This document shows, piece after piece, positions 12,918 through 63,866 of a stretch of 64,000 nt of DNA. Under the pieces are notes generated by a model, which had not been told where the DNA came from, ran no database searches, and saw only the letters and a list, made by a program, of their open reading frames with translations. How positions within the stretch are numbered: the stretch's first letter is position 1; each line of letters starts with the position of its first letter. The stretch lies in the NCBI GenBank assembly GCA_965214095.1, contig OZ243938.1, positions 1,554,197 to 1,618,196 of the forward strand, in the 5' to 3' direction. A program made the translations under genes and the position numbers. The stretch comes from Candidatus Poribacteria bacterium (GTDB lineage: Bacteria; Poribacteria; WGA-4E; WGA-3G).

Positions 12918-12938
12918 TCCATTATAGGAATATCTACA

Positions 12939-13290: not shown

Positions 13291-16200
13291 ATGAATTTTC
13301 AAAGACACTGTGACCGCTATCTACAGAGAATACGTCAGACACAATCAGACCCAAATGCAACGCCTGAACTATCTTTACTCCCACATCTCAAGACGTTTCT
13401 GGAAGATGTTACAGCAAACGCAGACTTTTTTGACAACCCCAACATCAGATTCACACTGGAACCCAGAACAATCAACCAGATCGGACGACCCGACATCATC
13501 GCAACAGACGGATTGTTACCCATCGGCTATATTGAAGCGGAATCGGACAGCACAGACCTAAATAACCTAACAGGACACGCCGCACAACAGAACCAACGTT
13601 TTAGAGAAAACCTTGATAACTTCATTCTTACCAACTTCACCGATTTTGAGTTGTGGATAGATGGACAATGCAACAAAACAGCACGAATTTTAGAGAACAT
13701 TGATGATTTAGAGATACTATTAGAGCGGTTCCTAAACGCATCTATCCAAATCGGCACACCGGAAGCACTCGCAAAATACCTTGCAAGACGGACCCGAGAA
13801 CTCCAAACACAGATCGCAACGACACTCACCGATGAGGACAGTGAAACCTACAGAATGTTCAAAGCGTTCAAGGAAACGTTGCTCGCGACACTCACTCCTA
13901 ACGATTTCTCGGATATGTATGCACAAACTCTCACGTATGGGTTATTCGCTGCACGCTGCACATTGCCGAATGCAACAAATTTTTCACGTCACACCGCAGT
14001 TGGCACACTCCCAAGATCAAATCCGTTTCTCGTCCAACTTTTTTATCATGTCGCCTCTCCGAGACTTGAGACGAATGTCACTTACATTCTGGATGACATT
14101 GCAACGCTTCTCCAAAACGTTCCAACAGCCATGCTCCGTACAGCATTTACTGCAAGAAATCCACTTGAAGACCCGGTTATCCATTTTTATGAGACGTTCC
14201 TAAAAGAATATAATCCGAAACTCCGCTTTGACCGCGGGGTTTTTTATACGCCGCCACAGGTTATCTCCTACATTGTTCGCTCAGTGGATTCCTTGCTCAA
14301 AACAAAGCTCAACAGACCCGATGGACTTGCCGATGACGACACGCTTATCCTCGATCCTGCCACGGGTACGGGTGGATTTCTGTTGACAGTGCTTGACCAT
14401 ATCCGAGAATATGTTACAGAAAATTATGGCACCGGGGATTGGAACCAGTATATAAACGCAAATTTAGTAAAACGGATTTTTGGATTTGAACTGCTTGTCG
14501 CACCGTATACGATTGCACATCTGAAGTTGAGTCTGTTTCTGCAGGCGCAAGGGTGGCGCACCAATGAACGTCTCGGAGTTTATCTTACCAATGCTTTGGA
14601 ACAACCGGATGAAATGCAGGCTCCCTTGCCTTTTGCTGCATTTATCTCTGATGAAGCAAACGCTGCACTCTCTGTGAAAAGGGACGCCCCTGTCCTCGTC
14701 ATCCTCGGCAATCCACCCTATAAGCAACATTCTGCCAACCCAAGCCGAGTCGGTAACGATTTAACTTTTATCGGTGGACTCATGGAAGATTACAGCCAGG
14801 TAGATGGAGAACCACTTGGTGAAGTCAACCCAAGAGCACTCCAGGATGACTATGTGAAATTTATCCGGTGGGCACAGTGGCGAATTGACAGAAACGGGGA
14901 GGGCGTTATCGGTTATATTGTTAACAACAATTTTCTTGATGCACCTACAGCTCGCGGCATGCGGCAAAATCTGTTAGACAGTTTCAACACAATATACGTA
15001 CTCAATTTACATGGCAGTAATAGAAGAACGGAAGCGGTGCCAACGGGACAGAAAGATGAAAATGTCTTTGATATTATACAAGGGGTTTGCATTCTGCTAT
15101 GTGTCAAAGAACGCGATAATCTTGATTCTACAAAGGTCTATCACGCTGATATGTGGGGATCCCGAGAAGAGAGATATAGGACACTTTCAGAGACCGATGT
15201 ACAATCTACGACGTGGTGTGAACTACAACCGGCATCACCTTATTACCTTTTTGTACCGCAAGAAATGGACTACAGTGCTGAATATGAAAGCAGATGGAAA
15301 ATTACAGACATCTTTCAAACTAGTTCAATTGGAATTGTCACCGCGCGAGATAAATTGACAATTCATTGGACTCCTGAAGAGATAAGGGAAACGGTAACCG
15401 ATTTTGTCACACTTTCTATTGATGATGCCAGGGAAAAATATAACTTAAGAAAGGATAGCCAAGATTGGAAAATCCATCTTGCCCAAGCCGATCTCCAAAA
15501 TAATCCCAATGCGGAAAAACATGTATCACCAATTTACTACCGACCGTTTGATACACGTTGGACATATTATACTGCGCACTCGCGTGGATTTCATTGTAGA
15601 CCTCGCCCTGAGATTATGCCACACTTGCGCAGGAAAAACCTTGCTCTCAGCGTCTGTCGTATTGTCAAAAGTCCCGTATGGCAACATGCCTTGATTTCCG
15701 ATAAAATTACAGATAATTGTTATATCTCAAACACAACCAGTGAATCTGCACATGTGTTTCCGCTCTACCTATATCCAGATTCAGAGGCATTATTAGGCTC
15801 AACAGAACCTGAACTCAATTTCAAACCCGAATTTCTCACTGCCCTTTCGGAGACGTTACAACTCCCACAAACCCCACCGTTTGGACTCTCCGAAGGTGTC
15901 ACACCAGAGGAGATTCTCGCTTATATCTATGCTGTGCTTTATAGTCCTACCTATCGTGAACGGTATTATGAATTTCTAAAATACGATTTTCCGCGTATCC
16001 CTTTACCTAAAGATATTGATCATTTCCGCAAACTCGCATCGTTGGGGCAGGAATTGATTAATTGGCATCTGTTGAAGGAAGTGCAGATTCCAGTTCGTCA
16101 TCGCTTTGAAGGTGAAGGTAACAGTGTTGTCTCAAGACACAGCTATGAAGATGGGAACGTGTGGATTAACGACACACAATATTTTACGGATGTGCCTGCG

Positions 16201-16371
16201 GAAGTATGGGAATATAAAATAGGAGCATATCAGGTATGTGAGAAGTGGTTGAAGGATAGGAAGGGAGAAACGTTGAGTCATGCGGAGGTTCGTCAGTATC
16301 GTTCTATTTTGGTTGCTGTTGCGGAGACGTTGCGGGTTGTGAGGGAGATTGATGGGGTGCTTGAATTTTAA
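13291..16371 (+). CDS. Type IIL/IIG (MmeI-like) restriction-modification enzyme with an N-terminal nuclease-like domain, a gamma-class N6-adenine DNA methyltransferase and a C-terminal target-recognition domain.
   Basis: Motif I is DPATGTGGFL and motif IV is VLVILGNPPY. The C-terminal YKIGAYQVCEKWLKDRKGETLS block is typical of type ISP/IIL specificity domains. The N-terminal GRPDIIATDG...IGYIEAES...NFILTNFTDFELW parallels the MmeI nuclease-domain layout. 1026 aa. Confidence 0.7.
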   Translation: MNFQRHCDRYLQRIRQTQSDPNATPELSLLPHLKTFLEDVTANADFFDNPNIRFTLEPRTINQIGRPDIIATDGLLPIGYIEAESDSTDLNNLTGHAAQQNQRFRENLDNFILTNFTDFELWIDGQCNKTARILENIDDLEILLERFLNASIQIGTPEALAKYLARRTRELQTQIATTLTDEDSETYRMFKAFKETLLATLTPNDFSDMYAQTLTYGLFAARCTLPNATNFSRHTAVGTLPRSNPFLVQLFYHVASPRLETNVTYILDDIATLLQNVPTAMLRTAFTARNPLEDPVIHFYETFLKEYNPKLRFDRGVFYTPPQVISYIVRSVDSLLKTKLNRPDGLADDDTLILDPATGTGGFLLTVLDHIREYVTENYGTGDWNQYINANLVKRIFGFELLVAPYTIAHLKLSLFLQAQGWRTNERLGVYLTNALEQPDEMQAPLPFAAFISDEANAALSVKRDAPVLVILGNPPYKQHSANPSRVGNDLTFIGGLMEDYSQVDGEPLGEVNPRALQDDYVKFIRWAQWRIDRNGEGVIGYIVNNNFLDAPTARGMRQNLLDSFNTIYVLNLHGSNRRTEAVPTGQKDENVFDIIQGVCILLCVKERDNLDSTKVYHADMWGSREERYRTLSETDVQSTTWCELQPASPYYLFVPQEMDYSAEYESRWKITDIFQTSSIGIVTARDKLTIHWTPEEIRETVTDFVTLSIDDAREKYNLRKDSQDWKIHLAQADLQNNPNAEKHVSPIYYRPFDTRWTYYTAHSRGFHCRPRPEIMPHLRRKNLALSVCRIVKSPVWQHALISDKITDNCYISNTTSESAHVFPLYLYPDSEALLGSTEPELNFKPEFLTALSETLQLPQTPPFGLSEGVTPEEILAYIYAVLYSPTYRERYYEFLKYDFPRIPLPKDIDHFRKLASLGQELINWHLLKEVQIPVRHRFEGEGNSVVSRHSYEDGNVWINDTQYFTDVPAEVWEYKIGAYQVCEKWLKDRKGETLSHAEVRQYRSILVAVAETLRVVREIDGVLEF

Positions 16372-24071: not shown

Positions 24072-24200
24072 ATATCTTACCTTTCAACAATTTGGAAGGT
24101 GAAGTAGTTCTTTGAAAGTTAAATAGTGAACGTGACGTGCCTATTAATAGCTTGTGAGTACGCTTCAATTATTTGATGATGTACTTCAAAACTTTTGTGG

Positions 24201-25752
<1,552 letters not shown>

Positions 25753-25864: not shown

Positions 25865-25938
25865 GGGCTTATAGCTCAGAAGGTTAGAGCGCGCGCCTGA
25901 TAAGCGCGAGGTCCCTGGTTCGATTCCAGGTAAGCCCA
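25865..25938 (+). tRNA. tRNA-Ile (anticodon GAU) in the 16S downstream spacer.
   Basis: GGGCTTATAGCTCAG...CCTGATAAG...GGTTCGATTCC...TAAGCCCA has a 7-bp acceptor stem and a GAT anticodon. Confidence 0.9.
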
Positions 25939-26174: not shown

Positions 26175-26795
26175 ATGGCGCGCCAAGCGAAGAACAAACT
26201 ATCTGCTACCGAAGATACTTACTTAGCCACACAAGTCAAACAAGGGAATGAAGCAGCGTTTAGACAGTTGTTTGATAAACACTATGAGTGGGTCTATAGT
26301 AAGGCATATCGTATGCTAAAATACCACCATCAGGATGCAGAAGAGGTTAGTTTGGACGTATTTACTAAGGTCTGGGAAAAACTACAAGATAATAAATGGG
26401 ACCCAAAGAAAGGAAGTTTTTGGGCTTGGCTAAATAAACTCGCGTTTAATACAATTGTTGATGCAATACGAAAAAGAGAACGGATTCGTGAATCGGTCCA
26501 AACCTATGAAGAACAGAATAACTTGCCGTTGAACCAGTACGAGGATGATGCCCCCGGGCCAGACAAACATATTATCGCTCAGGAAGCACAAGAAATATTA
26601 GAAAAGGCTCTTGAACAGGTCACAAGACCTAACCACCGTATTGCTTGGATATTACGACATTTAGAAGGATGTAGTGTCGCAGAGATTTCCCATATACTTA
26701 ATACAAAAGAAGGTACTGTGAAAATCTGGATTCACAGATGCACAATAGAACTCAGACAGATAATGGTCAACAATGGAATTACATGGATACAATAG
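26175..26795 (+). CDS. ECF-type RNA polymerase sigma-70 family factor.
   Basis: Region 2 is FRQLFDKHYEWVYSKAYRML...DAEEVSLDVFTKVWEKL and region 4 is LEGCSVAEISHILNTKEGTVKIWIHRC. Confidence 0.8.
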   Translation: MARQAKNKLSATEDTYLATQVKQGNEAAFRQLFDKHYEWVYSKAYRMLKYHHQDAEEVSLDVFTKVWEKLQDNKWDPKKGSFWAWLNKLAFNTIVDAIRKRERIRESVQTYEEQNNLPLNQYEDDAPGPDKHIIAQEAQEILEKALEQVTRPNHRIAWILRHLEGCSVAEISHILNTKEGTVKIWIHRCTIELRQIMVNNGITWIQ

Positions 26796-39642: not shown

Positions 39643-39774
39643 AGCCATTCATGTCAATTCACCGATAGTATATCGGCTGCTGCTGGCATAGTGAACTCAC
39701 CCAACCAACTTCGTAATAAGCATGCTAGACACTTAAACCTCAAACACTTTTTGGCAACAACAGGAGGCACTTTT

Positions 39775-41811
39775 ATGGAAAACAGACAACCTTTAACTCC
39801 CGTACTGCGACCACTTAACGACACTGATGTAACAACTTGGGAACTCTCCGAAGGTGCAATTGCCCGATTCGGACACGGATTGAGACTTGACGTAGAATTC
39901 TCACCCGATGCCGCATATCTTTCCGTAGCAACAAAAATTGGATTCTGGCTATATGATACGGATACCCTTGCACCTCGCGCATTGTGGGGTACCGAACGCG
40001 GCATGATGAATGTCGCCACCTTCTCGCATGATTCACGTTGGATTGCCACTGGTGACCAAGACGGGATTCTCAAGGTGTGGGATACACAAAACGGACAGTG
40101 CGTTGCAAAAACTGACTGGGGAGGTACTGAGGAACGCAATGTCATCCTTCATGCCCACTTTTCACTGGACGATCAATATCTCGCTGCTTCCGGTTTTGGA
40201 CATAGTGCTGTCTATACCTGGAATAGAGAACTCAACGCACCTATCAGGAATTTTAAACTTGAAAAGCCAAAATTAGCGGATTATAGAAAAGAAGGTACTT
40301 CTTATGACAGATATTTTCCCATCGCTTTTTCACCCAACAGTAATCTATTCGCTTATGTGTCTTCACCGGAAGCAGTAACGGTTTCAGATATAAACACAAG
40401 TGAAGAGATAGCACACCTCACGGGACACACTACCCCATTACATACCCTCCTGTTTTCACCCTGTGGACAACACCTTGCGAGTGCAAGTCGTGGCACTGCA
40501 GTTCAAGTATGGGATATTCATAATGAATCTCTTGTTATGGCACCCAAAACATATCAAGGTGAAAGAGTAAGACTTGCGTACACACCAGATGAGACATTAC
40601 GTGTTGCAGACATTTATAATGACAAAGTGGTAATGTGGGATGCTTCACAGCACAAAAAGTTGGATACCTTCAACACTATTGGGAATACAGACAGTAAGGC
40701 AAGGTTTTCAAACGATGGAACAAAATTCGCAATTACATGCAGGAACCGCAAAATCCAAATATGGCATGAAGATGATTCTACTACAAAATCGTTCTTTTCT
40801 GGATATGGAAGTATTCCTTATTCGGTGGCATTTATGCAGGATAACAAAACATTGATCGGTGGGAACTGGGGAGGTACTGGTAAGTTATTTTGGGATATAA
40901 ATAGACGGGAAGTCCAGCGGATACTGCCACCAGAGAAACGCAGTTCTTCCAGAGGATGCATGACGTTGTCTCCAGATGATCAACTCTTGGCTATTGATAC
41001 AGGAGACAATGATATACACGTCTGGCATGTTGAAACTGATGAATTAGTTGCAGAACTAACAGGACATGAAAATCGGATTTATTCGTTGACGTTTTCTCCT
41101 ACCGGTAAATACCTTGTCAGTGGAGGATGGAAAGACGAATTATACGTTTGGGATGTCGCGCGCTGGGAAAAACATCACACACTTATAGGACATACAAGTT
41201 CAATTGAGGCAATTGCATTCCATCCTGATGGAAAACGGTTCGTTACCTCCTCCAGGGATGGAACAGCCTTGCTATGGAATGTTGAAACCGGAGAACAAAT
41301 CTCACCACTTCCTTTACCTGAAACCTTAGAGGATGTCTCTCTATACAGGGGTGAACCAGACGAAATTGAACGAGTTATCAATGGTGGGAATCTTCAATAT
41401 AAGAAATATCAACACATGCAATCTATTGTTTTTTCGCCTTGTGGCAACTGGATTGCTGGTGGACTCGGCACATGGATCGCTGATGCGTTAATAAATGAAA
41501 TCCGATTGTGGGACACAGAAACGTTAGAAACACGCATGATATTCCTTCAACCTCATGGATGTATTCGTCCGTGGGCATTAGCATTTTCTCCGTGTGGAAA
41601 GTATCTCGCATCAGGTGCTTGGTGGAAATGGGGATTAGACAAAGCACCTATCCACTTGTGGGAAATGACGACTGGCGAAAATATCCATACTTTCTGGGGA
41701 CACGCATCGGATGTTCAAGATGTAGCCTTTTCACCAGATGGAAAATATTTGGCAAGTGGCAGTTATGATGGCACTGTCCTATTGTGGGCTATGGAACCAT
41801 TTCTTGATTAG
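39775..41811 (+). CDS. WD40 repeat protein, array member W7.
   Basis: AGGAGG lies 7 nt before the ATG (MENRQPLTPVLRPLNDTDVTTWELSEGAIARFGHG). C-terminus VLLWAMEPFLD. Confidence 0.8.
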   Translation: MENRQPLTPVLRPLNDTDVTTWELSEGAIARFGHGLRLDVEFSPDAAYLSVATKIGFWLYDTDTLAPRALWGTERGMMNVATFSHDSRWIATGDQDGILKVWDTQNGQCVAKTDWGGTEERNVILHAHFSLDDQYLAASGFGHSAVYTWNRELNAPIRNFKLEKPKLADYRKEGTSYDRYFPIAFSPNSNLFAYVSSPEAVTVSDINTSEEIAHLTGHTTPLHTLLFSPCGQHLASASRGTAVQVWDIHNESLVMAPKTYQGERVRLAYTPDETLRVADIYNDKVVMWDASQHKKLDTFNTIGNTDSKARFSNDGTKFAITCRNRKIQIWHEDDSTTKSFFSGYGSIPYSVAFMQDNKTLIGGNWGGTGKLFWDINRREVQRILPPEKRSSSRGCMTLSPDDQLLAIDTGDNDIHVWHVETDELVAELTGHENRIYSLTFSPTGKYLVSGGWKDELYVWDVARWEKHHTLIGHTSSIEAIAFHPDGKRFVTSSRDGTALLWNVETGEQISPLPLPETLEDVSLYRGEPDEIERVINGGNLQYKKYQHMQSIVFSPCGNWIAGGLGTWIADALINEIRLWDTETLETRMIFLQPHGCIRPWALAFSPCGKYLASGAWWKWGLDKAPIHLWEMTTGENIHTFWGHASDVQDVAFSPDGKYLASGSYDGTVLLWAMEPFLD

Positions 41812-41887
41812 CATATATATGCATCAGATTGAACTAAAGTATTCTTTAGTGTCCAAACAAGCTGTAGCAATTGCTGAGGAGATTATT

Positions 41888-43879
41888 ATGTATCATAATC
41901 AAATCTATAATACGAATCAAATGAAGTCTGATAATACAGATGTAACAACATGGGAACTCCCCGATGGCGCAATCGCCCGATTAGGACGGGGTTGGGTGCG
42001 CCGAGATATAGCATTTTCACCTAAAGGGGTGTGTCTAGCTATTGCGACAGACATCGGTTGTTGGTTATATGACCTTGATACGATGGTGCCACGTGTGTTG
42101 TGGGATACAGAACGGGGGATGGTTTCTGCCATCTCCTTTTCACACGATGCACGATGGATTGCTACCGGAAACACCGATGGCACCTTGAAGATATGGTCCA
42201 CAGAAACTCTCCAATACATCATAGAAATTGAAACCGGAAAACCTGTTTTCCAACTTAGCTTTTCACCAGATGGACAGTACTTAGCATGTGTCAGTAAAAT
42301 GTCTACGGGAAGTTGTCGAACAAGTATTTATATTTGGCGTGAAAACACCGGCACACCGATCATAGATTTCTCTTTTACATCTAAGCCAGGCGGGCATAAT
42401 TCATACGCAACAGCTTTTTCACATAATGGTGAACTATTTGCATATACGTCTGATTATAATATCATATCTGTAATAAATGTAGAGACGAATGAATGTATCG
42501 CTCAACTTCCGGAAGTATCCACTGAACAACGGTCCGCTGTTGGTCCTCAACTCATTTTTTCTCACTGCGGGAAGTATCTTTCTGGCTACATTCGAAAAAA
42601 TAGGATCTACGTTTGGGATCTCTTCTGCGGTACAATGGAAAAATCGATGGAATATAATAAAATCAATAGGTTGATCCCGACCTTCACATCTGATAGTACT
42701 TTGCGGGTAGCATGTATCTCTGACAACGAGGTGGTCATCTCAAACGCAGCTCAGCAGGAGAAAGTGGATACCTTTGAAATTTGGGGACCGTCTGAAGTAT
42801 CAGCTTGTTTCTCAGCAGATGGATCAAGATTTATTATTTCGAATAGACGCGGCGACCTTTACATGTGGACAGAAACCTCTTCTCCATCTGTAAATATTCT
42901 CACTGGACATTTGCCAGGGGTTAGACAGGTAGGTTTTTCTAAAGATAGCAGAACACTAGTGAGTAATTACGATTATCGAGCTGGATGTCGGTTATGGAAT
43001 GTTGAGAGTAAACGGGTCGGATTGACCTTTCTTTTTCAATATTCGGATCGTAATTCACCCGGTAAGATGGTTATCTCCCAAGGTCAGGAATTCTTCGCTA
43101 CTACTAACGGAAACGGTATTAATATTTGGGATATAGCATCTGGCACACAAATATCAGAACTTACCGTAAAGCCTACAAGTGTACGCAATATGGCTTTTTC
43201 ACTAACTGGGGAATATCTCATAGGAAACCACAGAGGAGGAGTTACAGTATGGAATACGATGCAATGGGAAAAGTGCTATACTCTGAGTATTGAACAAATT
43301 GATCTCCGTAAAGCTCGGTTGCTGTTTCATCCAAACGGTGAGTTTTTTATAATTATTCCGCGTGAAGGGGATAATCTTATTTGGGATCTCAAGAGTGGTG
43401 ATCAAGTTGGCACACTATCCACAGCAATGTGCTCAGATATCACCCTATTTAGAGGTCTAAAAACGGACATCCAGAGAGCTCCTAAACAGCAAACACACCC
43501 TCGACGTGTATGGGGATTTGAGGCATCCCCTCGTGGCACACTTCTCGCTGGGGGAATGTGGGATGAAATTAGAATTTGGGACGCTGCTACCTTAGAAACG
43601 CGTATGGTCATAATTCCACCTGAAGGATGTCAAAAGCAGCATACGCTTGCATTTTCCCCTTGTAGCCGCTACCTTGCCTCCGGTACATGGTGGCAAAGGG
43701 GTCAGAAGAAGGTATCCATCCGGTTATGGGAGGTAGCTACAGGTGAGAATATACATACTTTCTGGGGACACCCTACTGATGTGCAGTGTCTCGCTTTCTC
43801 ACCGGATGGCAGGATTTTGGCAAGTGGTAGTTTTGATGGCACCATCCTCCTCTGGGATATGAAACCATTTATAAATTAA
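41888..43879 (+). CDS. WD40 repeat protein, array member W8.
   Basis: The start is set by the conserved leader GTAGCAATTGCTGAGGAGATTATT-ATG (MYHNQIYNTNQMKSDNTDVTTWELPDGAIARLGRG). C-terminus ILLWDMKPFIN. Confidence 0.8.
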   Translation: MYHNQIYNTNQMKSDNTDVTTWELPDGAIARLGRGWVRRDIAFSPKGVCLAIATDIGCWLYDLDTMVPRVLWDTERGMVSAISFSHDARWIATGNTDGTLKIWSTETLQYIIEIETGKPVFQLSFSPDGQYLACVSKMSTGSCRTSIYIWRENTGTPIIDFSFTSKPGGHNSYATAFSHNGELFAYTSDYNIISVINVETNECIAQLPEVSTEQRSAVGPQLIFSHCGKYLSGYIRKNRIYVWDLFCGTMEKSMEYNKINRLIPTFTSDSTLRVACISDNEVVISNAAQQEKVDTFEIWGPSEVSACFSADGSRFIISNRRGDLYMWTETSSPSVNILTGHLPGVRQVGFSKDSRTLVSNYDYRAGCRLWNVESKRVGLTFLFQYSDRNSPGKMVISQGQEFFATTNGNGINIWDIASGTQISELTVKPTSVRNMAFSLTGEYLIGNHRGGVTVWNTMQWEKCYTLSIEQIDLRKARLLFHPNGEFFIIIPREGDNLIWDLKSGDQVGTLSTAMCSDITLFRGLKTDIQRAPKQQTHPRRVWGFEASPRGTLLAGGMWDEIRIWDAATLETRMVIIPPEGCQKQHTLAFSPCSRYLASGTWWQRGQKKVSIRLWEVATGENIHTFWGHPTDVQCLAFSPDGRILASGSFDGTILLWDMKPFIN

Positions 43880-44017
43880 CGACTTGTGCTAAAAAACTAA
43901 ATGTTAAGTATTGATTCACACATTCAGGTCCTTTTGTCCGTATTTCTTTCACTTAAGATGCTCTTTAGTCCCGTATGAAGATAAAAAACAAATAGGGTAA
44001 TTTGACTTCAAAGTCCA

Positions 44018-44100
44018 GCGCGCTTACAAAGCGCGCCTACGGGTTTGACAAGCGCGCAAGCAAAGCACGCCTACAGGTCTTGGGTTAATTAAGATTAACC
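44018..44100. promoter_or_regulatory. Structured segment of the 400-bp W8-W9 spacer: a GCGCGC-TTACAAA-GCGCGC hairpin, a second GCGCGC copy, and the perfect AT-rich hairpin GGTTAAT-TAAG-ATTAACC.
   Basis: The inverted repeats are at 44018-44036 and 44083-44100. This is the only long intergenic gap inside the WD40 array, and the conserved leader begins right after it. Confidence 0.3.
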
Positions 44101-44282
44101 GTTTAATAAATTAATCTTCATTAGGGACGATATGCTTATAGTGTTAATGCTATTAAATGTAAAAACCAACAAGACAGAATGTTAACTGGCACAAGTCGTA
44201 AATTAGCATATATGTGCATCAGATTGAACTAAAATATTCTTTAGTGTCCAAACAAGCCGTAGCAATTGCTGAGGAGATTATT

Positions 44283-55105: not shown

Positions 55106-57190
55106 ATGCATCATATTCAAACCTATAATACGAATCAAATGAAATCTGATAATACAGATGTAACAACATGGGAACTACCTGAAGGTGCAATCGACAGATT
55201 AGCAAGGGGACGGGTGTCGGATATGTCATTTTCAACTGATGGTAAGTATCTTGCCGTCGCAACGCCGATCGGTTGTTGGTTGTATGATAGATTGTCGCTG
55301 AAAACGATCGCGTTATTTGATACAGAAAGTGGAATGCTTAATACCATTGCCTTTTCACCCGACACCCAGTTCATTGCTACCAGTAATAAAGATGGTGTTT
55401 TAAAGGTATGGGATACACAAACGCTAAAGTGTCTTGCAAAGATAAACCATCGCAAGAATGTAGATGCAGCTTCAGGATATTTTTCGAAGCTCTGCTTTTC
55501 TCAAGATAACCAATACTTAGCCGCATCCTGTTTTGATAAACAAAATGTTGTCTACGCATGGCAACAAAACACTGATAAACCTATGATCTGTTTACCGATT
55601 GATGTAGAAGAAACGAAGGGACACAGCTTTCCCATCTGTTTCTCACCTAATGGGTATCTACTCGCGTATGTGTCTTCTGTATCTCTCCAGAACACTGTAA
55701 CGATTTCCGATATTGAAACCGGTGAACACATCACACATCTTAGCCAATCCTCGGCACTGTCTACATACCGTTTTTCCCCTTGCGGACAATATATAGCAGC
55801 TGCTAATCGGAACAATGAAGTGTTGGTATGGAATGTTCACAACGGCACTTTGGAAACGGAACCAACAGCGTATGATGGAAAGTGGTTAAGCATTGCCTAT
55901 ACACCTTATGGCATACTACGCGTTGCCGATATTTACGACTATAAAGTTGTGATTTGGGATGCTATCTCAAAAGAAAAAATAGATACCTTTGAACGCGATA
56001 AACCCAGGTCTGATCATTTTTTAAGCGGACATCATTTACACTTTTCATCCGGTGGCGCACACATCGCAACGATCCTCTCGCGCAGTAAGCTCTGTGTGTG
56101 GACGGTCGGGGCACCATCAAGTAAAGTTTCAAGTCCTGCTGATCATAAACCTGTTGTCCACGCGGTTGCTTTTTCTAAAGACGGAAAGACATTAGCAAGT
56201 AGATATGCGTGGGGTATGTATCACGTATTCTGGGATGCTACACAGCGACAAACAGAACAAATATTCCCAACGCCAAATATCCAAGCACAACGCACAGCTC
56301 TAACTAAAGACCTAACAGAAGAAGAGAAAAAGCAGTGGTACCGTGTCAGTGCCTTGTCACCTTGTAGGGAACGACTGGCACTTCGCGACCTTCCGAGAGG
56401 GTCAGTTGAAATTTGGGATATTGCGTCTGAAACCCTTATTACAGAACTCTCGGACAGTAAGAAATTTAGATCTTGGCGTGAAATGCGTTTTTCACCGACA
56501 GGTGAACGTTTTATCGATACAGCACCGACAGGTGATATTGATGTCTGGGATACACAGTCTGGTGAGAAAGTCAATACACTCGCAGGAGATAACCGACTGA
56601 TTTTGACAACTGCGTTTCACCCTGATGGTAAACAACTCGCTGCTGCACCAAAAGGGAGTGCTGGAATGCTTTGGGATATTGACAGCGGTGAACAACTCGG
56701 AGTGTTCCCTACAGAACTGCCAGAAGATACCTCCCTCTATAGAGGCGATCCAGAGCAGATACACCAATATATTCAAAAATATAAAAAAATAATCAAGCAA
56801 TATAAGTGTATCCCTTACAAACTCGCCTTCTCTCCTTGTGGCACGATGATCGCCTGTGGGATACAAGATCATATCCGGTTGCGAAATACAGCAACCTTAG
56901 AAACGCACATGCTTATACTACCACCCGAAACGTGTAGCAGACCGTTTGCACTCACATTTTCCCCCTGCGGAAAATACCTCGTCTCTGGGTCGTGGTGGAT
57001 AAAGGGGTTGGACAAAGTATCCATAAGAATATGGGAAGTCGCAACGGGTCAAAATATACACACATTCTGGGGACATACAACAGATGTGCAGGATTTAGCA
57101 TTTTCACCGGATGGCAAATATCTCGCAAGTAGCAGTTATGATGGCACCATACTCCTCTGGGATATGAAACCTTTTACCGGTTCAGATTGA
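55106..57190 (+). CDS. WD40 repeat protein, array member W14.
   Basis: It has the conserved leader with the AGCAATTGCT palindrome and MHHIQTYNTNQMKSDNTDVTTWELPEGAIDRLARG. Its 3' ~250 bp is nearly identical to W9 and W11. Confidence 0.8.
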   Translation: MHHIQTYNTNQMKSDNTDVTTWELPEGAIDRLARGRVSDMSFSTDGKYLAVATPIGCWLYDRLSLKTIALFDTESGMLNTIAFSPDTQFIATSNKDGVLKVWDTQTLKCLAKINHRKNVDAASGYFSKLCFSQDNQYLAASCFDKQNVVYAWQQNTDKPMICLPIDVEETKGHSFPICFSPNGYLLAYVSSVSLQNTVTISDIETGEHITHLSQSSALSTYRFSPCGQYIAAANRNNEVLVWNVHNGTLETEPTAYDGKWLSIAYTPYGILRVADIYDYKVVIWDAISKEKIDTFERDKPRSDHFLSGHHLHFSSGGAHIATILSRSKLCVWTVGAPSSKVSSPADHKPVVHAVAFSKDGKTLASRYAWGMYHVFWDATQRQTEQIFPTPNIQAQRTALTKDLTEEEKKQWYRVSALSPCRERLALRDLPRGSVEIWDIASETLITELSDSKKFRSWREMRFSPTGERFIDTAPTGDIDVWDTQSGEKVNTLAGDNRLILTTAFHPDGKQLAAAPKGSAGMLWDIDSGEQLGVFPTELPEDTSLYRGDPEQIHQYIQKYKKIIKQYKCIPYKLAFSPCGTMIACGIQDHIRLRNTATLETHMLILPPETCSRPFALTFSPCGKYLVSGSWWIKGLDKVSIRIWEVATGQNIHTFWGHTTDVQDLAFSPDGKYLASSSYDGTILLWDMKPFTGSD

Positions 57191-57269
57191 GGCACTTCCA
57201 ATAAGAATGTGCCAATTGCTTGAAACTGAGATGAATTTCCGCTAAACTTTAGCAGGGAGGATTATGATC

Positions 57270-58541
57270 ATGTCAAACATTTCAGATGAACAATTGGTAG
57301 TCGCCGCGGCAAAAGGTGATACCAATGCAATGGAAAACATAAAAGAAAGAGCAATATTTGGAAAATACGGCATACGCAAATGTCTTAAGAAGATGGGATG
57401 TACTGATAAAGAAATATCTCTGCTGGAACCCAAAATAGTCCAGATTTTGTTGGCTTCCATACCCAAATATGAATTCACTGCTCCGTTTTTTGTATACGGA
57501 TACCGTCTTGCGGTAAATTATTCTCTCCAATATAAGGAAAACAGGGAAGTTCTACTGTTTGACAAACGGATACATAAGGAAAAAGCATGCCCAAATACAC
57601 TGCGGACATTGAGCGACACTCTTGGAAAACCTAAGCATCCGCCGCTTGAACAAATTGACCTTGAGATTCGGACACTTGTGAGTTTACTGAATCAATCACC
57701 TGACATTAAAACATCCGGTTCCTCTTGTAGTGGACATCCAGATCAGGAAGAATGGAAAAACGGGAAATGGTCTCAATTTGGAGGATATATTGGGATCATA
57801 CCAATGAGTTCCCCGGACAAGGCATTGGATTTTCTCAACGGTATACTGAAGAAGTTAGATAATTCTAACACACAGACCAAGAATAGATTTTTACCAGCAG
57901 ACCTACAGCAAACAAAGAGTACACTGAATGAAAACATCACTTTCACTGACGCAATTCGCGCACGATACAAGCAAGTAGACGCTGAGGATTTGTTCTGCTC
58001 AGATGCCCCCGTTGTCTTGATAAACGTTTCATTCCGTTTTTATGTGTGCCATAGCCATGCAAAGCATTCTTTAGAAATCTGGAAACAACTCATCGCGCGT
58101 ATAAAAGAGTTGATCCCAGAAGACAGGGAGCTTACTGCTGAAGTTGACACGCCAGAGAAGGCAATGCAGCTATTGCAAAAAGCATTACACCGGTTACCCT
58201 TCCTATTTAGTGCCACACTTACGACAAGTCAGGAAGGATATCCCGGAATAGTCTTGACTACTGTAGCAGACCTCGCTTTATTACAGTGGTTTTCAACATT
58301 AGCCGATAGGCTGCATGAATGTCTTGATAATGCAGGATATGTAAGTTCTCGCTATACAGAAGATGAAATACCATATGCTGAAAAGTGGTCTTTCACGTTG
58401 AGACCATTTCTAAACCAAGAATGCATACCGTTACCGCATCTGTTAGCACCGCAGTGGGAACCACGCACTCGTGAAGACCATCTGAAGATTTGGAAACTCC
58501 TTGAGTTAACAGTGGCAGAACAAGTTGAATGTGAAATTTAG
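57270..58541 (+). CDS. Hypothetical protein with an ECF-sigma region-2-like N-terminal domain and a ~330-aa domain of unknown function (paralog A).
   Basis: The N-terminus QLVVAAAKGDTNAMENIKERAIFGKYGI...FTAPFFVYGYRLAVNYSLQYKEN resembles sigma-70 region 2 (ECF). No region-4 helix-turn-helix is visible. GGGAGG lies 9 nt before the ATG. Confidence 0.45.
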   Translation: MSNISDEQLVVAAAKGDTNAMENIKERAIFGKYGIRKCLKKMGCTDKEISLLEPKIVQILLASIPKYEFTAPFFVYGYRLAVNYSLQYKENREVLLFDKRIHKEKACPNTLRTLSDTLGKPKHPPLEQIDLEIRTLVSLLNQSPDIKTSGSSCSGHPDQEEWKNGKWSQFGGYIGIIPMSSPDKALDFLNGILKKLDNSNTQTKNRFLPADLQQTKSTLNENITFTDAIRARYKQVDAEDLFCSDAPVVLINVSFRFYVCHSHAKHSLEIWKQLIARIKELIPEDRELTAEVDTPEKAMQLLQKALHRLPFLFSATLTTSQEGYPGIVLTTVADLALLQWFSTLADRLHECLDNAGYVSSRYTEDEIPYAEKWSFTLRPFLNQECIPLPHLLAPQWEPRTREDHLKIWKLLELTVAEQVECEI

Positions 58542-58665
58542 AGCATTTACCAGTAATCTATATTAAAATGTAATAAGTAAACACCTCGCTATAGAAAATG
58601 AAGACTAAAAACATTTTGGGGTGATCCACTCAACAATCGTCAAATTGACATTTAGGAGGATTTTT

Positions 58666-59943
58666 ATGTTGTCAAACATTTCAGAGCAAAGATTGATAGT
58701 TGCAGCGGTGAAAGAAGGTGATTCCAATGCATTGGAAGAACTAAAAGAACGTCTAATTTCTGGACAATACGGTATACGCCCTATAATTAATAGAATTCCA
58801 TGTGCAGATGCCGACAGAAAAATACTTGAACAACATATTGTGGAGAATATCATCAATGATTTGCATGCACATGGGTTCAGAGGGTCTATCCAGACATCTG
58901 GATTCCGTCTCGCTACCCATTTTGCTATCCAATATAGGAATAATAACGACTTTAGACTTTCTGACCTAGACAGTCCGAAAGAGAAAGTAGTGCTGACTGC
59001 AAACAATGATCCTGAAGAACCTAAGCACCCTCCACTGGAGGAAATTGACCTTGAGATTCGGACACTTGTGAGTTTACTGAATCAATCACCTGATATTAAA
59101 ACATCCGGTTCTTGTAGTGGACATCCACAATGGCAACCCGATAAATGGACTCAGTATGGAGGCTATCTTGGGATCAGACCTATCAGTTCTCCGCGTAAAA
59201 CTTTAGATTTTCTTGTTGGTATGCTGATGCAGTTAGATAATACAGGCACGCCAACCAATAATGCATACTTGCCAGCTGCGCTGCAAGTAGAGGATAGCAC
59301 ACGGAATGATAACACCATTTCTGTCGAAGCAATTCGTGAGCGATATAAGCAAGCTGACGCGGAGAATTTATACTGTTCCGGTGCGCCTATTGTCCTTATA
59401 GGTGTTTATTTTCGTTTCTATGTTTGTCATCGTGAAGAAAGCCACTCTTTAGAAATCTGGAAACAACTCATCGCACGTATAAAAGAGTTGATCCCAGAAG
59501 ACGGAGAGCTTACTGCCGAAGTTGACACGCCAGAGATGGCAATGCAGCTATTACAAAAAGCATTACACCGGTTACCCTTCCTATTTAGTGCCACACTTAC
59601 GACAAGTCAGGAAGGATATCCCGGTATTATCTTGCACACAGTAGCAGACCTTTCATTATTCCAATGGTTTTGTGCATTAACCGACAAACTACATGAGCAG
59701 CTTGGCAAAGCAGGATATGTAAGTTCTCGCGATACAGAAGATGAAATACCATATGCTGAAAAGTGGTCTTTCACGTTGAGACCATTTCTAAATCAAGAAT
59801 GCATACCGTTACCGCATCTGTTAGCGCCGCAGTGGGAACCACGCACTCGTGAAGACCATCTGAAGATTTGGAAACTCCTTGAGTTGGCAGTTGCAGAACA
59901 ACTTAAGTCTGAGGGTATTACATTAAAAACTGAAAATACGTAG
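58666..59943 (+). CDS. Paralog B of the sigma-2-like/unknown-domain protein.
   Basis: AGGAGG lies 6 nt before the ATG (MLSNISEQRLIVAAVKEGDSNALEELKERLISGQYGI...). Long blocks are near-identical to paralog A (HPPLE.IDLEIRTLVSLLNQSPDIKTSGS ... EIWKQLIARIKELIPED.ELTAEVDTPE.AMQLLQKALHRLPFLFSATLTTSQEGYPGI). Confidence 0.45.
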   Translation: MLSNISEQRLIVAAVKEGDSNALEELKERLISGQYGIRPIINRIPCADADRKILEQHIVENIINDLHAHGFRGSIQTSGFRLATHFAIQYRNNNDFRLSDLDSPKEKVVLTANNDPEEPKHPPLEEIDLEIRTLVSLLNQSPDIKTSGSCSGHPQWQPDKWTQYGGYLGIRPISSPRKTLDFLVGMLMQLDNTGTPTNNAYLPAALQVEDSTRNDNTISVEAIRERYKQADAENLYCSGAPIVLIGVYFRFYVCHREESHSLEIWKQLIARIKELIPEDGELTAEVDTPEMAMQLLQKALHRLPFLFSATLTTSQEGYPGIILHTVADLSLFQWFCALTDKLHEQLGKAGYVSSRDTEDEIPYAEKWSFTLRPFLNQECIPLPHLLAPQWEPRTREDHLKIWKLLELAVAEQLKSEGITLKTENT

Positions 59944-60089
59944 TGTATCTCATAAATCATTATAGGACGAGGTTTTGTGCTTCATCCTATCCTGGGAAAA
60001 AGACAATGGACGGGCACAGAGACTCGCCTCTACGATTTAAGGTAATGTGGTATTATTTCATTTCAAACTGTTTTTATGGTGTGTTTAAT

Positions 60090-61973
60090 ATGCAAAACAA
60101 AGATTTCACACAGAACTATCCTGAAGAAAACCTTATCTCTTTACCATCCGAGGCGATCGCTCGATTCGGTAGGGGTGATGTAGAAGGTACTGCCATCTCC
60201 CCCGATGGAAATATGATTGCAGTAGCATCCCGTATTGGTTTGTGGATTTATAATGCTCATACTGAAGATTTCATAAGGCTAATTGCGGTAGAAGGCACAG
60301 GTCTACTTTCAAGGGTTACTTTTTCTCCAGATAGCACACAGGTTGCTACAGGCGATTGGGATGGCATTGCATCACTATGGGATGTTTCTACTGGAGCAAA
60401 ACTCGCAACCTTCAAGAATAAAGATTATGTCATTTCCATTGCTTTTTCTCCAGATGGAAAATCCTTGGCAACTGGAACACGGGATGGTAAAGCAACACTG
60501 TGGGATATTAACACTGGTAATGAACGTTGGTCGATTTCTCACAAAGATTATGTCACTTCCGTTGCTTTTTCTCCAGACGGTTTACTTTTAGCAACAGGTA
60601 GTCGGGATAGTACATCAAATCTATGTGATGTTGAGAATGGAGAAGTTCAACGGTGTTTCACCCATCAGAAACATAGTGTAGATATTGAATTAGATACCGG
60701 GTTCGTTGAGACCTTTAACAATCTCGGAATCAATTGCATTGCCTTTTCTCCAAATGGACGATATTTTGCCACAGGTGACCGTATCGGAGCTGATATAAAG
60801 GGTGTTACAACATTGTGGGATATTGAAAGCGGGGAGGCTGTGTGGGAATTTGCCCATGAGGACTCTGCGACATCAATTGCTTTTTCAACAGACAATAAAT
60901 ACATGGCAACTCGCTTTTCCAATGGAGACACCGATGTTCGTCATATTGCCGATTGCACAACGGCATCAATTCAAGAAGGAAATTGGGCAAAACAGAAAAA
61001 GAAACCGCCAGCAAGTCATCCACGAGGATTATACGGCTGGCTCGTTAACTTTTCACCAGACGGAAAGCACTTGGCTGCCGTAACACAAATGTCTTCCCTT
61101 AAGATATGGGATTTAGCATCTGGGATAAACATCAAGACAATTGACCAAGATATTGGACAAGCAGAAGCACTATCTTATGCACACGATGGATATTGCTTTG
61201 GAGTGAGCCGATCATCCAAAGGTGAGACCTCTTGGAATTGTGCGACCTTTTGGAAAGATCAGGAACAAAATATTGACTTTCGGCCTGAAGATCCAAATGC
61301 AGACATTTTATCCGCCGCTGTTTCACCTGATACCGAAATTGTGGCTACAGGAGGAGATGATAAAAAAGTTTATTTATGGGATAGAGCAACACAAAAATTG
61401 GTTAACACACTTTCTGGACATACTGGACCAATAATTAACCTTGCATTCTCCCCTAATGGCACACACTTAGTAAGCACAGGAGGCATTGAAGTGGAAAGAC
61501 AAGAAAAAGATGGAACCGTGTATTCTTACCCACTGGAGGATGGTGCGGCAGATCAGACAGCAAGAGTTTGGCATATTGAAACAGGTACTGAGGTCGCAAC
61601 GCTCACGCATCGCTTCAAAGTTGAGACGCTTGTTTTCTCACCAGATAGTACTTGCCTTGCAACTGCCTCTGGGGAAGATGTCCATCTGTGGGATACTAAG
61701 ACGTGGCTGAAAATTGTAACACTTGAGACAGTAAGAGTTGAGTCGCTCGGATTTTCGGCGGATGGTTCGCTACTTGCCGTTGGTGGTACAGGACGGAAGC
61801 CAAAGATACAGATATGGAATGTGAAAACAGCACAACTGATTGTAGAATTCTCTGGTCACAAGAGTGATGTGGAATCTGTTGCCTTCTCACCAGATGGCAC
61901 ACTATTGGCAAGCGGAGGTTTTGATAGTGTCATCTACTTATGGGATATGAAATCTATTACAGAATTAGATTGA
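60090..61973 (+). CDS. WD40 repeat protein of a different subtype (W15) that closes the array.
   Basis: It has canonical WD repeats (AFSPDGKSLATGTRDGKATLWD...) and a related N-terminal LPSEAIARFGRG motif, but a different C-terminus (ITELD). I placed the start at the ATG that gives MQNKDFTQ, by analogy with the other WD genes. Upstream in-frame starts are possible. Confidence 0.6.
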   Translation: MQNKDFTQNYPEENLISLPSEAIARFGRGDVEGTAISPDGNMIAVASRIGLWIYNAHTEDFIRLIAVEGTGLLSRVTFSPDSTQVATGDWDGIASLWDVSTGAKLATFKNKDYVISIAFSPDGKSLATGTRDGKATLWDINTGNERWSISHKDYVTSVAFSPDGLLLATGSRDSTSNLCDVENGEVQRCFTHQKHSVDIELDTGFVETFNNLGINCIAFSPNGRYFATGDRIGADIKGVTTLWDIESGEAVWEFAHEDSATSIAFSTDNKYMATRFSNGDTDVRHIADCTTASIQEGNWAKQKKKPPASHPRGLYGWLVNFSPDGKHLAAVTQMSSLKIWDLASGINIKTIDQDIGQAEALSYAHDGYCFGVSRSSKGETSWNCATFWKDQEQNIDFRPEDPNADILSAAVSPDTEIVATGGDDKKVYLWDRATQKLVNTLSGHTGPIINLAFSPNGTHLVSTGGIEVERQEKDGTVYSYPLEDGAADQTARVWHIETGTEVATLTHRFKVETLVFSPDSTCLATASGEDVHLWDTKTWLKIVTLETVRVESLGFSADGSLLAVGGTGRKPKIQIWNVKTAQLIVEFSGHKSDVESVAFSPDGTLLASGGFDSVIYLWDMKSITELD

Positions 61974-62111
61974 AGACACCTCCAATCAGAATGCAATAGG
62001 GGGTAATGTCAATAATTTCAGATGAAGGGCATTAGTTAACAATCTCACTGCTTTAACTGTGAGTCAATGAAATTCAGAGGCATTCAATTGTCAATATTCT
62101 CTATCGTGGGA

Positions 62112-62131
62112 GGGGTTTCAAACCCCGATTT
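62112..62131 (+). terminator. Candidate intrinsic terminator GGGGTTT-C-AAACCCC followed by GATTT, downstream of W15.
   Basis: A perfect 7-bp GC-rich inverted repeat with a short U-rich tail lies 140 bp after the stop of 60090..61973. Confidence 0.4.
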
Positions 62132-62384
62132 AACAACAAAATCAGTCGTCCTCACGCAATTCACATTGCTTTCTATTGCTATAAATGAGGTATTATGATA
62201 AATTGAAGTAATCCCATTTCTAAAAAATGAAAATTCATTGTGAAATTATCGGTTCAAGCAGAGTTGAAGAATGTCCGAGGCGCAATGAATTGAACGACTA
62301 CAAACGCGTTTTTTGTGAATGACAAGCGATCAATTAGGAATGGGAAAATAGAAGATTTTGACATACTCACCGAGTTAAAACTCC

Positions 62385-62404
62385 GGTGATTCTTTTGAAA
62401 GAAT
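62385..62404. promoter_or_regulatory. Perfect 20-bp palindrome TGATTCTTT-TG-AAAGAATCA (a candidate operator) upstream of the Gfo/Idh/MocA-isomerase gene pair.
   Basis: Perfect 9-bp arms. It lies in the 850-bp non-coding region before 62826. Confidence 0.3.
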
Positions 62405-62825
62405 CACACAAGCAATTGTGGTATCAACGACCTTGTTTAGAAAACCTAATAGGCATTCCAGTGACAAAGCCTACTCCAACAGTTGATGTCCCAACTGCAC
62501 CTCCAAAGGAGGTCTTAAGAAACATTTTCACGTGTGAATATCAACGGGATGAGTTTTGAAACTTCTTTCCCTAACACGCAACAGATGTTTTGAAAACTTT
62601 AGCAGTATTGAATAGCAAAGCTTTTACGTGATTGTTTCACTGCTTAGCTATCTGCCGTAGCATCAATCACAACCAATGCCGATTGCTAAAGATATTATAT
62701 TAGTTTTTAGATTAAAAGGCAAGTTTTTTCTTGACACACAATAGGAGTGGTGTCTACATCCCCGTGCTAAAGCAACGGGGTCTTGACACCGAAGATATGA
62801 TAAAGTTTGAAGGAGATAAATATTG

Positions 62826-63866
62826 ATGTTAAATTGGGGTGTGATTGGACCTGGTGGTATTGCACGCGTATTCTGCAATGGTATGCGATTTACGGATACT
62901 GGACAGATTTTTGCAGTTGCGAGCCGTACTAAATCACGTGCAGAGAGTTTTGCAGATATTTTTGATATACCACGTCGTTATGGGAGTTATGAAGCACTGT
63001 TAGCTGATGGAGATATTGATGCAGTTTATGTTGCGACTATTCACCCACATCACGCGGAGTGGGTAATTAAAGCCGCTGAGGCAAAGAAGCATATTTTGGT
63101 TGAGAAACCAATTAGTATTGATCATGCGACCGCTTCAACGATGGTGGACGCTGCCCGTAAGAATGATGTGTTCTTGATGGAAGCGTTTATGTATCGTTGC
63201 CATCCGCAGATACAACGCATGGCTGAGTTGATTCAGGACGATGCAATCGGTGAGGTGCGTTTCGTTCAAGCGACATTTGGGTTTCAAGCAGGTTTCAATC
63301 CAGAAGGTCGCCTTTTCAATCGTGAAATGGGTGGTGGTGGAATTCTTGATATTGGATGTTATACTGCCTCAATAGCTCGTAAAGTTGCTGGTGCGGCTGT
63401 GGGTAAACTGTTCTTAGATCCGATTTCAGTAAAGGCGCATGGGAAGATTGGACCGACGGGTGTTGATCACATTGCAGCGGCGACACTGAAATTTGAGAAT
63501 GAAATTATTGCTGAGATCGTCTGTGCTGTTGAATGTAACATCGGTAGTAAAGTTATTATCTACGGTTCTGGTGGGACAATTACGATTCCAAGTCCTTGGC
63601 TGCCATCTTCACCGTGTCGTGGTGCGAGCGGTGCAATGCCTTTAGATACAACCTTCCCACCAAGTATACTTGTTTTGAACTCCTATCAAGATAGAGAAAC
63701 AACGGAGATATCCGTTGAAGTAGACCGTGACCTATTTACCTATGAAGCAGATATGGTAGCAAACCATATTTCTGATCGACAAGCACCTGCGATGTCTTGG
63801 GATGACACATTAGGAAATATGAAGGTGTTAGATGCTTGGCGTGCAGAGATAGGCGTTGTTTATTGA
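62826..63866 (+). CDS. Gfo/Idh/MocA-family oxidoreductase.
   Basis: The Rossmann N-terminus is MLNWGVIGPGGIARVF. It has the family EKP motif (LVEKPISIDH). GAAGGAG RBS. An in-frame TTG at 62823 is an alternative start. Confidence 0.8.
   Translation: MLNWGVIGPGGIARVFCNGMRFTDTGQIFAVASRTKSRAESFADIFDIPRRYGSYEALLADGDIDAVYVATIHPHHAEWVIKAAEAKKHILVEKPISIDHATASTMVDAARKNDVFLMEAFMYRCHPQIQRMAELIQDDAIGEVRFVQATFGFQAGFNPEGRLFNREMGGGGILDIGCYTASIARKVAGAAVGKLFLDPISVKAHGKIGPTGVDHIAAATLKFENEIIAEIVCAVECNIGSKVIIYGSGGTITIPSPWLPSSPCRGASGAMPLDTTFPPSILVLNSYQDRETTEISVEVDRDLFTYEADMVANHISDRQAPAMSWDDTLGNMKVLDAWRAEIGVVY

Follow-up and report, generated by a model that had tools for sequence, protein, structure and literature searches.

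What is the role of two tandem genes whose products begin like an extracytoplasmic function (ECF) sigma factor, have no sigma region 4 and end in a large domain of no assigned family? The question is raised by a 64,000-nucleotide (nt) stretch of the genome of a sponge symbiont, Candidatus Poribacteria (GenBank assembly GCA_965214095.1, contig OZ243938.1, positions 1,554,197 to 1,618,196, forward strand; hereafter the window, whose first letter is position 1), where the pair lies among genes for WD40 proteins. We refer to the family of these two proteins, A and B, as sigma2-X, to its sigma2-like domain as sigma2' and to its C-terminal domain as X. The answer we favour, with a probability of about 40%, is that sigma2-X proteins are sigma-domain mimics or adaptors and not sigma factors. 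Their architecture, a lone sigma region 2 followed by a linker and a domain with a TYW3 signature, appears from sequence comparison to be new: neither Pfam nor NCBIfam has a model for it, and neither a name in the sources nor a paper on it was found, in agreement with a first-pass annotation of this DNA that had named no described family of this kind. No mention of proteins of the sigma2-X type was found in the ECF reviews and classification PMC8999054 and PMC7826278, and our literature search found no paper on 'TYW3-like' and none joining ECF, WD40, anti-sigma and Planctomycetes. The architecture would clearly surprise ECF specialists, and its near-constant location within arrays of WD40 and sigma-WD40 genes suggests a new accessory regulator of such systems.

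Paralog A occupies 57264 to 58541 on the forward strand (425 amino acids, aa) as an open reading frame (ORF) with a GGGAGGA ribosome-binding site, and paralog B occupies 58666 to 59943 on the same strand (425 aa), with AGGAGG 6 nt 5' of its ATG and the domain order of A. The two are co-directional tandem ORFs whose products are 65% identical over their full length (BLASTP), and the B sequence is an exact match to the called protein P0006 (NCBI/ENA). The ORFs and motifs listed in the first-pass annotation are all present, with SGSSCSGHP in A, SGSCSGHP in B and LLAPQWEPRTREDHLKIWKLLEL in both (BLASTP alignment); the start it gave for A, 57270, is the third codon (Met3), where the family consensus begins, and its lengths of 424 and 426 aa were off by 1-2 residues. 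The ORF map also agrees that the pair sits between the WD40 array, whose 14th gene lies at 55106-57190, and a fifteenth WD40 gene (ORF 59943-61973, likely start 60090).

A sigma region 2-like domain without region 4

The N-terminal domain of A spans 57264-57548 (forward strand, aa 1-95). When searched singly, the A and B sequences matched no sigma model, and nothing beyond a sub-threshold TYW3 match was returned from Pfam, NCBIfam, PADLOC or the PDB. A profile of 102 family members (alignment A1) matched, over positions 4-88, structures of E. coli sigmaE region 2 in a PDB profile search (E 2.6e-4 to 3e-3). An exhaustive HMMER search of 1.84 billion representatives with this profile (E<=1e-3) gave 1012 matches, mostly ECF sigmas of ~190 aa aligned over profile positions 1-100; Pfam Sigma70_r2 matches only 2 of the 102 members. 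The AlphaFold2 (AF2) model of A (predicted local distance difference test, pLDDT, 85; predicted template modelling score, pTM, 0.86) was aligned by Foldseek with the sigmaE region 2 structures 5or5, 4lup, 2map and 2mao at a template modelling (TM) score of 0.61-0.69, a root-mean-square deviation (rmsd) of 2.6-3.1 A and a probability of 0.98-1.0. Profile and Foldseek together give statistical support to the region 2 resemblance that had been noticed by eye, and the N-terminal ~95 aa form a genuine sigma region 2 fold of the ECF type.

The lack of region 4, also noted earlier, was seen in every comparison: none of the 102 members matched Sigma70_r4 or r4_2 in Pfam, the PDB profile matches end before region 4, and in the AF2 model sigma2' is followed by a low-confidence linker (aa ~96-123) and then by an alpha/beta domain. 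In A this linker lies at 57549-57632 (forward strand, aa 96-123); its pLDDT falls under 50 at aa 115-123, and both its length and its sequence vary in alignment A1. As there is no region 4, a sigma2-X protein is unable to work alone as a sigma factor. It has been previously reported that the negative charges of an acidic DAED-type motif in region 2.2 are usually needed for contact with the beta-prime subunit of RNA polymerase (PMC8999054). The equivalent columns of the family, 49-52, are variable and mostly non-acidic (K-E-I-S in A, A-D-R-K in B, K-H-L-E in the consensus), and the canonical mode of binding to core polymerase may be lost in sigma2'. A region 2.3/2.4-like motif, F71..F75.W78..R81..N85 (in general form F..F/L.W..R(I/L)..N), is conserved. 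BLASTP found no similarity between sigma2' and the ECF sigma of the window, and a recent origin by copying from a sigma gene nearby was rejected.

The sigma2 fold is genuine and its 2.3/2.4-like motif is conserved, as would befit a subunit of a split sigma factor. Under this explanation sigma2' would give core binding and -10 recognition, a separate sigma4 protein would pair with it, and X would regulate the pairing; the precedent is SigO-RsoA of B. subtilis, with sigma2 and sigma4 on two polypeptides (PMC7826278). RsoA resembles sigma2-X in having a sigma region 2-like sequence without region 4, but it is a protein of ~80 aa encoded beside the sigma4-bearing SigO, whereas sigma2-X has an extra 300-aa domain and has lost the DAED signature. 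Furthermore, an ECF profile run on all ORFs of the window and of the 27 family loci described below found no sigma4-only gene, the neighbouring sigmas having both region 2 and region 4, and X also occurs with Clp_N in place of sigma2'. We therefore consider a split sigma quite improbable.

The X domain and its other partners

The X domain of A spans 57633-58538 (forward strand, aa 124-425). Its AF2 model, computed on X only, is confident (pLDDT 86, pTM 0.86), and in Foldseek comparisons of the X-only and full models with the PDB no significant fold match for X was obtained (best E 0.04, with weak ferredoxin-like/ABM hits). The earlier view that this part of the protein belongs to no assigned family was borne out; the accompanying statement that it holds no assignable motif was not, since X carries a signature of the TYW3/Taw3 catalytic centre. 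Pfam TYW3 is the sole family match of X and covers only positions 14-48 of the 211 in the profile; the window copies score 17 and 19 bits against a cutoff of 27, and 93 of the 102 family members match at E<=0.01 within the same positions. In A the signature, IDLEIRTLVSLLN...SGSSCSGHP, lies at 57654-57740 (forward strand; Pfam TYW3 E 0.0036), and in B at 59044-59127 on the same strand.

The TYW3/Taw3 class of tRNA-yW N4-methyltransferases (PF02676) is defined by the motif (S/T)xSSCxGR together with an invariant Asp (D25) and a His (H73) that binds S-adenosylmethionine (SAM), in the numbering of SsTaw3, and the Arg of the motif is essential (PMC5311493). X resembles this class in having a helix with a conserved Asp and, 22 residues on, a strand that ends in (S/T)xSSCxG: D132, conserved in at least 90% of members, precedes S154 by the same spacing that separates D25 from S47 in SsTaw3. 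The motif of A, S151-G-S-S-C155-S-G157-H158, fits seven of the eight positions of (S/T)xSSCxGR, the Arg being replaced by H158, which is invariant along with S154, C155 and G157 and is followed by P159. X differs from TYW3/Taw3 in this invariant His-Pro in place of Arg, in having no equivalent of His73 (the position is G or R in the window copies and varies in outgroups), in matching over only ~35 of 211 positions and in being 100 residues longer, and Taw3 structures are absent among the top 50 Foldseek hits. We therefore rejected X as a TYW3 member: it fails on the Arg, on His73 and on the whole domain (gathering score; SHS2 plus RAGNYA fold). Wybutosine has been described as not found in Bacteria (PMC4417183); the host of sigma2-X is bacterial.

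Conservation in X extends well past the signature. Residues N143, G174, N200, T296, R401, H406 and W410 are invariant also in outgroups that are 26-30% identical, and the last three belong to a C-terminal signature, WEPRTREDHLKIW, located at 58455-58493 in A and at 59833-59871 in B (both forward strand). Both A and B can be aligned over their whole length with 100 homologs, and all invariant residues are present in each, as are the D..SCSGHP and RTREDHLKIW signatures. The conserved polar centre of X (D132, S154-C155-S-G157-H158-P, R401 and H406) derives from the TYW3/Taw3 catalytic signature, with the essential Arg changed to His. On the basis of alignment and model, X can be described as a previously undescribed, elaborated alpha/beta domain of ~300 aa that carries the N-terminal helix-strand catalytic signature of the TYW3 superfamily. 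Because the pTM is the same (0.86) for the full-length and the X-only models, the predictions suggest that sigma2' and X pack together.

The same kind of signature, ID.EIR.LV.LLN..PGI.T.SC.GH, TYW3-like with His for Arg, was seen in many small bacterial proteins of ~150 aa (e.g. P0145, P0146, P0157, P0178, P0150 and P0197). These score near or under the Pfam TYW3 threshold, and no assigned function was found for them. X defines an uncharacterised His-for-Arg branch of the TYW3 superfamily that includes many small stand-alone bacterial proteins.

The exhaustive search also placed X in other domain combinations. X stands alone in P0108, P0110, P0115, P0117, P0118 and P0119, and it follows two Clp_N repeats in P0109, P0116, P0120, P0121 and P0125, which form five separate clusters at 50% identity (e.g. 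L029:3142-4449; loci are labelled L and proteins P). An X-like region is joined to an FGE-sulfatase domain in P0138, and in the singleton P0114 (L031:912-2006) the order is reversed, with X first and sigma2' at the C-terminus (domain E 2e-10 for sigma2'). These combinations point to a general pattern in which X is the constant part, placed behind interchangeable protein-docking modules. The Clp_N-X fusions come from several unrelated metagenomic lineages, and the gene for P0120 adjoins a B12-binding radical SAM gene and a PqqD gene. On the whole, the gene neighbourhoods of the X-only and Clp_N-X outgroup proteins were not informative.

A constant X with exchanged docking modules is what would be expected if X were an active enzyme descended from TYW3, a methyltransferase or another Cys/His-dependent enzyme, which its N-terminal module delivers to a target: sigma2' to RNA polymerase or single-stranded promoter DNA, and Clp_N to Clp substrates or adaptors. 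The catalytic Asp, Ser, Cys and Gly of TYW3 are kept at unchanged spacing, R401 and H406 are invariant into distant outgroups, and the conserved 2.3/2.4-like motif of sigma2' would suit such delivery. Nevertheless, the Arg essential in TYW3 is a His in X and the SAM-binding His is not conserved; the short, low-scoring Pfam match and the missing Taw3 structures argue in the same direction. The loss of the DAED beta-prime signature also speaks against it, and the tight linkage to WD40 genes described below would be left unexplained. We regard a tethered enzyme of this kind as unlikely.

Family range, WD40 neighbourhoods and the role of sigma2-X

The family comprises more than 100 full-length homologs (109 for A) of 40-94% identity, in whose alignment 19 columns are invariant and ~70 nearly so. 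When 185,579 species genomes were scanned, 27 loci were obtained, 23 of them with a full-length gene; 26 are titled Poribacteria and one 'uncultured bacterium'. The closest locus in a public genome, L001, is 94% identical, and all other named homologs are from Candidatus Poribacteria. Full-length sigma2-X was thus found only in Candidatus Poribacteria; its phylogenetic range is narrow, and what can be said of its function comes from sequence and model comparison. The reading of A and B as decaying ECF sigma remnants, fused by chance to an unrelated ORF and without function, would account for the absence of region 4, and it could draw on the heavy recombination of the arrays and on the existence of family fragments (L010, L024-L027). 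Against it stand the breadth and conservation just given, intact ORFs with ribosome-binding sites, confident AF2 models and the conservation of separate A and B types across genomes. The conservation data exclude a pseudogene or artefact, and a chance remnant is extremely improbable.

The ORFs of these loci were classified by BLAST against the window proteins and by a small ECF profile. A WD40 double-propeller gene is immediately adjacent to sigma2-X on the same strand in 18 of the 23 full-length loci, with several 4-nt stop/start overlaps, and a gene with a complete ECF sigma domain lies within 10 kb in 13 of the 23, so that the co-occurrence with WD40 and ECF sigma genes raised in the first-pass annotation is found in related genomes. 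The neighbours with an ECF sigma domain are mostly sigma2-sigma4-WD40 fusions of 850-950 aa (confirmed by Pfam for L012:7345-9954), the architecture that has been reported for ECF57 (PMC8999054). Sigma2-X lies directly 3' of such a fusion in L006, L012, L015, L016 and L023 and directly 5' of one in L014. Three poribacterial control loci (L035-L037) had no WD40 arrays, and the association therefore does not merely reflect the abundance of WD40 genes in these genomes. Taken together, sigma2-X recurs in the arrays of cytoplasmic double-propeller WD40 genes of Poribacteria, and many of these WD40 genes have a complete N-terminal ECF sigma.

Two classes of sigma-WD40 fusion were seen in the poribacterial arrays. 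Class 1 (L006:447-3146, L012:7345-9954, L015:7270-9954 and L023:26-2704) is cytoplasmic, with a short linker joining sigma4 to the N-terminal motif of the plain WD40 proteins, and class 2 (L013:13409-16147 and L014:7828-10347) has after sigma4 a hydrophobic segment that probably spans the membrane. The plain WD40 proteins start with ..TW.LPEGAI.R.G.G, the motif found after sigma4 in class 1, and by this criterion they look like sigma-less versions of the fusions. In two divergent loci without an adjacent WD40 gene (L017:1886-4144 and L022:11241-13643), a gene for an STT3-like (oligosaccharyltransferase-type) membrane protein of 750-800 aa begins 19 nt after sigma2-X. A further variant, P0136 (L032:10001-10942), is a singleton in which a sigma2' of the family type (domain E 5e-14) stands in for the WD40 part, after a complete ECF sigma that shares 72% identity with its counterpart in a poribacterial class 1 fusion. 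P0136 may be functional, or it may be a recombination remnant.

A role as a mimic, decoy or docking module is the reading that best fits these data, because the DAED signature is lost, sigma2' is predicted to pack on X, sigma2-X co-occurs with proteins that bear or regulate ECF sigma domains, and Clp_N takes the place of sigma2' elsewhere. As a mimic or adaptor, sigma2' would dock on a partner that normally recognises an ECF sigma2 domain; candidates are a WD40 propeller and, on the sigma-WD40 proteins, their sigma4 or an inhibitory surface. X would provide ligand, redox or metal sensing, or catalysis, through its Cys/His centre, and binding and release of sigma2-X would tune the activity of the sigma/WD40 module by partner switching. 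As their sigma2-like domains have diverged, A and B would differ in partner specificity.

The nearest functional parallel is PhyR, the anti-anti-sigma factor of the alphaproteobacterial general stress response. It is likewise a non-sigma protein with an ECF-sigma-like domain, which is used for partner switching and not for promoter recognition and is fused to, and packed on, a signal-receiving domain. Unlike sigma2-X, PhyR has both sigma2-like and sigma4-like regions together with a phospho-receiver domain, and it binds NepR, whereas sigma2-X has a sigma2 alone followed by X. No receiver domain was found in A or B with Pfam and NCBIfam, and no small NepR-like gene is conserved among the loci. 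A functional analogy between sigma2-X and PhyR is possible; if it is true, sigma-factor mimicry, known from PhyR, would gain a second and structurally different case. Sigma2-X can also be compared with ECF57 and other extension-regulated ECFs (ECF41, ECF42, CorE-like), which are regulated by appended domains and have no membrane anti-sigma; neighbours of the ECF57 type adjoin sigma2-X, which differs from ECF57 in having neither sigma4 nor WD40 repeats and in being a separate accessory protein. It has been reported that ECF57 is common in Planctomycetes (5.3 copies per genome; PMC7826278), and that the mode of regulation of WD40-extended ECF sigmas has so far only been hypothesised (PMC8999054). 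A sigma2-only accessory protein would offer a testable handle on the switching of such one-component sigma systems.

Several observations weigh against a mimic or adaptor role. The window array contains no sigma-WD40 fusion (ECF profile on the window ORFs), its only sigma being a stand-alone ECF sigma whose adjacency is clade-specific. In 4 of the 23 loci (L010, L020, L021 and L022) no WD40 gene is nearby, and two of these four also have no sigma gene nearby. A recent copying of sigma2' from a neighbouring sigma-WD40 protein was rejected, as it scores 14-24 bits to their sigma2 domains vs 20 bits to E. coli RpoE. P0114 and P0136, each a singleton from a contig that is short or of low coverage, could be decay products, and their testimony is anecdotal. 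Finally, X retains most of an enzyme active site, and its role need not be purely regulatory.

The strongest and most general link of sigma2-X is to plain WD40 genes, and this raises the alternative that its partner is a WD40 protein with no role in transcription. The sigma2-like bundle would then be a plain protein-binding domain, and sigma2-X would help, modify or regulate 'eukaryote-like' WD40 proteins in assembly, modification or host interaction. WD40 proteins are among the abundant eukaryote-like proteins of Poribacteria (PMC3909097). The link holds in this window and in L001, L003 and L004, where no sigma-WD40 fusion was seen within reach, and where the start codon of the next WD40 gene overlaps the stop codon of sigma2-X, the two products may well be stoichiometric partners. 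This alternative does not account for the ECF-sigma-domain genes of 13 of the 23 loci, for the N-terminal motif that plain WD40 proteins and sigma-WD40 fusions have in common, for P0136, which joins the sigma of such a fusion to sigma2', or for the four loci without WD40 genes. In our judgement it has only a small chance of being right, comparable to that of the tethered enzyme.

The mimic or adaptor reading can also be carried further, in a form that we offer as speculative and rather doubtful. Sigma2-X would be the third part of a new signalling system in which a dedicated sigma2 mimic controls an ECF sigma and WD40 double propellers, whether or not these two are fused. Its TYW3-derived Cys/His domain would sense a small molecule (e.g. 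SAM or a nucleotide), a metal or redox state, or would covalently modify a partner, and the same X with Clp_N would apply a decoy or adaptor logic to Clp chaperones. WD40 arrays are among the largest paralog expansions of dominant sponge symbionts, and a regulator of these arrays would bear on the role of 'eukaryote-like' WD40 proteins.

Mosaic structure of the pair and the surrounding window

In a codon alignment A and B are 76% identical at the nucleotide level, and this average covers sharply different segments. Three blocks stand at 93-100% identity, with exact runs of 52-71 nt and third-codon identities of 88-93%; outside them nucleotide identity is 40-70% and third-codon identity ~50%. 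Block 1 (57640-57735, partner 59030-59120; 95-98% identity, 52-nt exact run, third-codon identity 88%) and block 2 (58065-58250, partner 59443-59628; 93-100%, 71-nt exact run, third-codon identity 93%) correspond to the two block pairs reported at first, and the alignment adds block 3 at 58330-58510 (partner 59708-59888), all on the forward strand. Given the high third-codon identity inside the blocks, selection at the protein level cannot account for them.

The window genes were compared with their A and B counterparts in L001 and L003. In the N-terminal sigma-like part, in the linker and over aa 161-268 they track orthology, A grouping with A and B with B, with A vs B at ~60-69%. Within blocks 2 and 3, the two copies of one lineage resemble each other as much as orthologs do, or more; in block 3 the window A and B are 97% identical vs 93% for A and its L001 ortholog, which shows gene conversion. 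Over aa 326-355 the window B clusters with the A-type genes of L003 and L002, and the B gene of L001 has been overwritten by its A neighbour. The mosaic is thus the product of repeated, patchy gene conversion between tandem copies. Conversion homogenises the core of X, and the sigma2-like domain and part of X persist as two old, distinct types, A and B, which are kept across genomes.

Upstream of A, 14 co-directional double-propeller WD40 genes without a sigma domain form an array at 26908-57190, and the fifteenth WD40 gene follows directly downstream of B at 60090-61973, in the ORF that opens at 59943 (all forward strand). The intergenic regions have been co-duplicated with the genes, and we found in them no convincing ECF-type promoter motif shared with the region upstream of the sigma gene. 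A scan for promoters and terminators over 56900-62900 did not exceed the number of hits in shuffled sequence.

A stand-alone ECF sigma gene with regions 2 and 4 is located at the head of the array (26175-26795, forward strand), and it had been proposed that this gene and the 35-kb block form one regulatory unit. The case for such a unit is weak, and the membership of this sigma in the system is doubtful. It is 25-27% identical to the sigma parts of the sigma-WD40 fusions. Its orthologs at 85-87% identity (L002, L034) have the WD40 array next to them, whereas those at 69% (L035), 64% (L036) and 59% (L037) are followed by genes for an FHA protein, a TPR/peptidase_MA protein and CvpA, with no WD40. 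We rejected the sigma as the head of a conserved sigma-array unit as a general rule, the adjacency being specific to the L002/L034 clade. In L035-L037 the trio of FHA-domain, TPR/Peptidase_MA_2 and CvpA genes lies around 10001-13300 in each, and in L035 the FHA gene overlaps the sigma stop codon. From this comparison the trio is probably the ancestral set of regulatory partners of the stand-alone sigma, and the insertion of the array probably took place next to a sigma gene whose own conserved downstream genes were already there.

Other features of the window were noted in passing. The ECF sigma gene is directly preceded by a complete 16S rRNA gene (24194-25744) and a tRNA-Ile(GAT) gene (25865-25938); the 38 kb that remain of the window contain no 23S rRNA gene, and the 16S gene appears unlinked from 23S. 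A gene for a Type ISP restriction-modification enzyme (N6_Mtase plus Type_ISP_C) occupies 13291-16371; L034 and L036 have this gene as well, upstream of their ECF sigma orthologs. Within the array, a 74-nt overlap between the ORFs 39691-41811 and 41738-43879 and a gap of 334 nt before 44214 are irregularities that suggest a frameshift or a recombination scar at 39691-44214.

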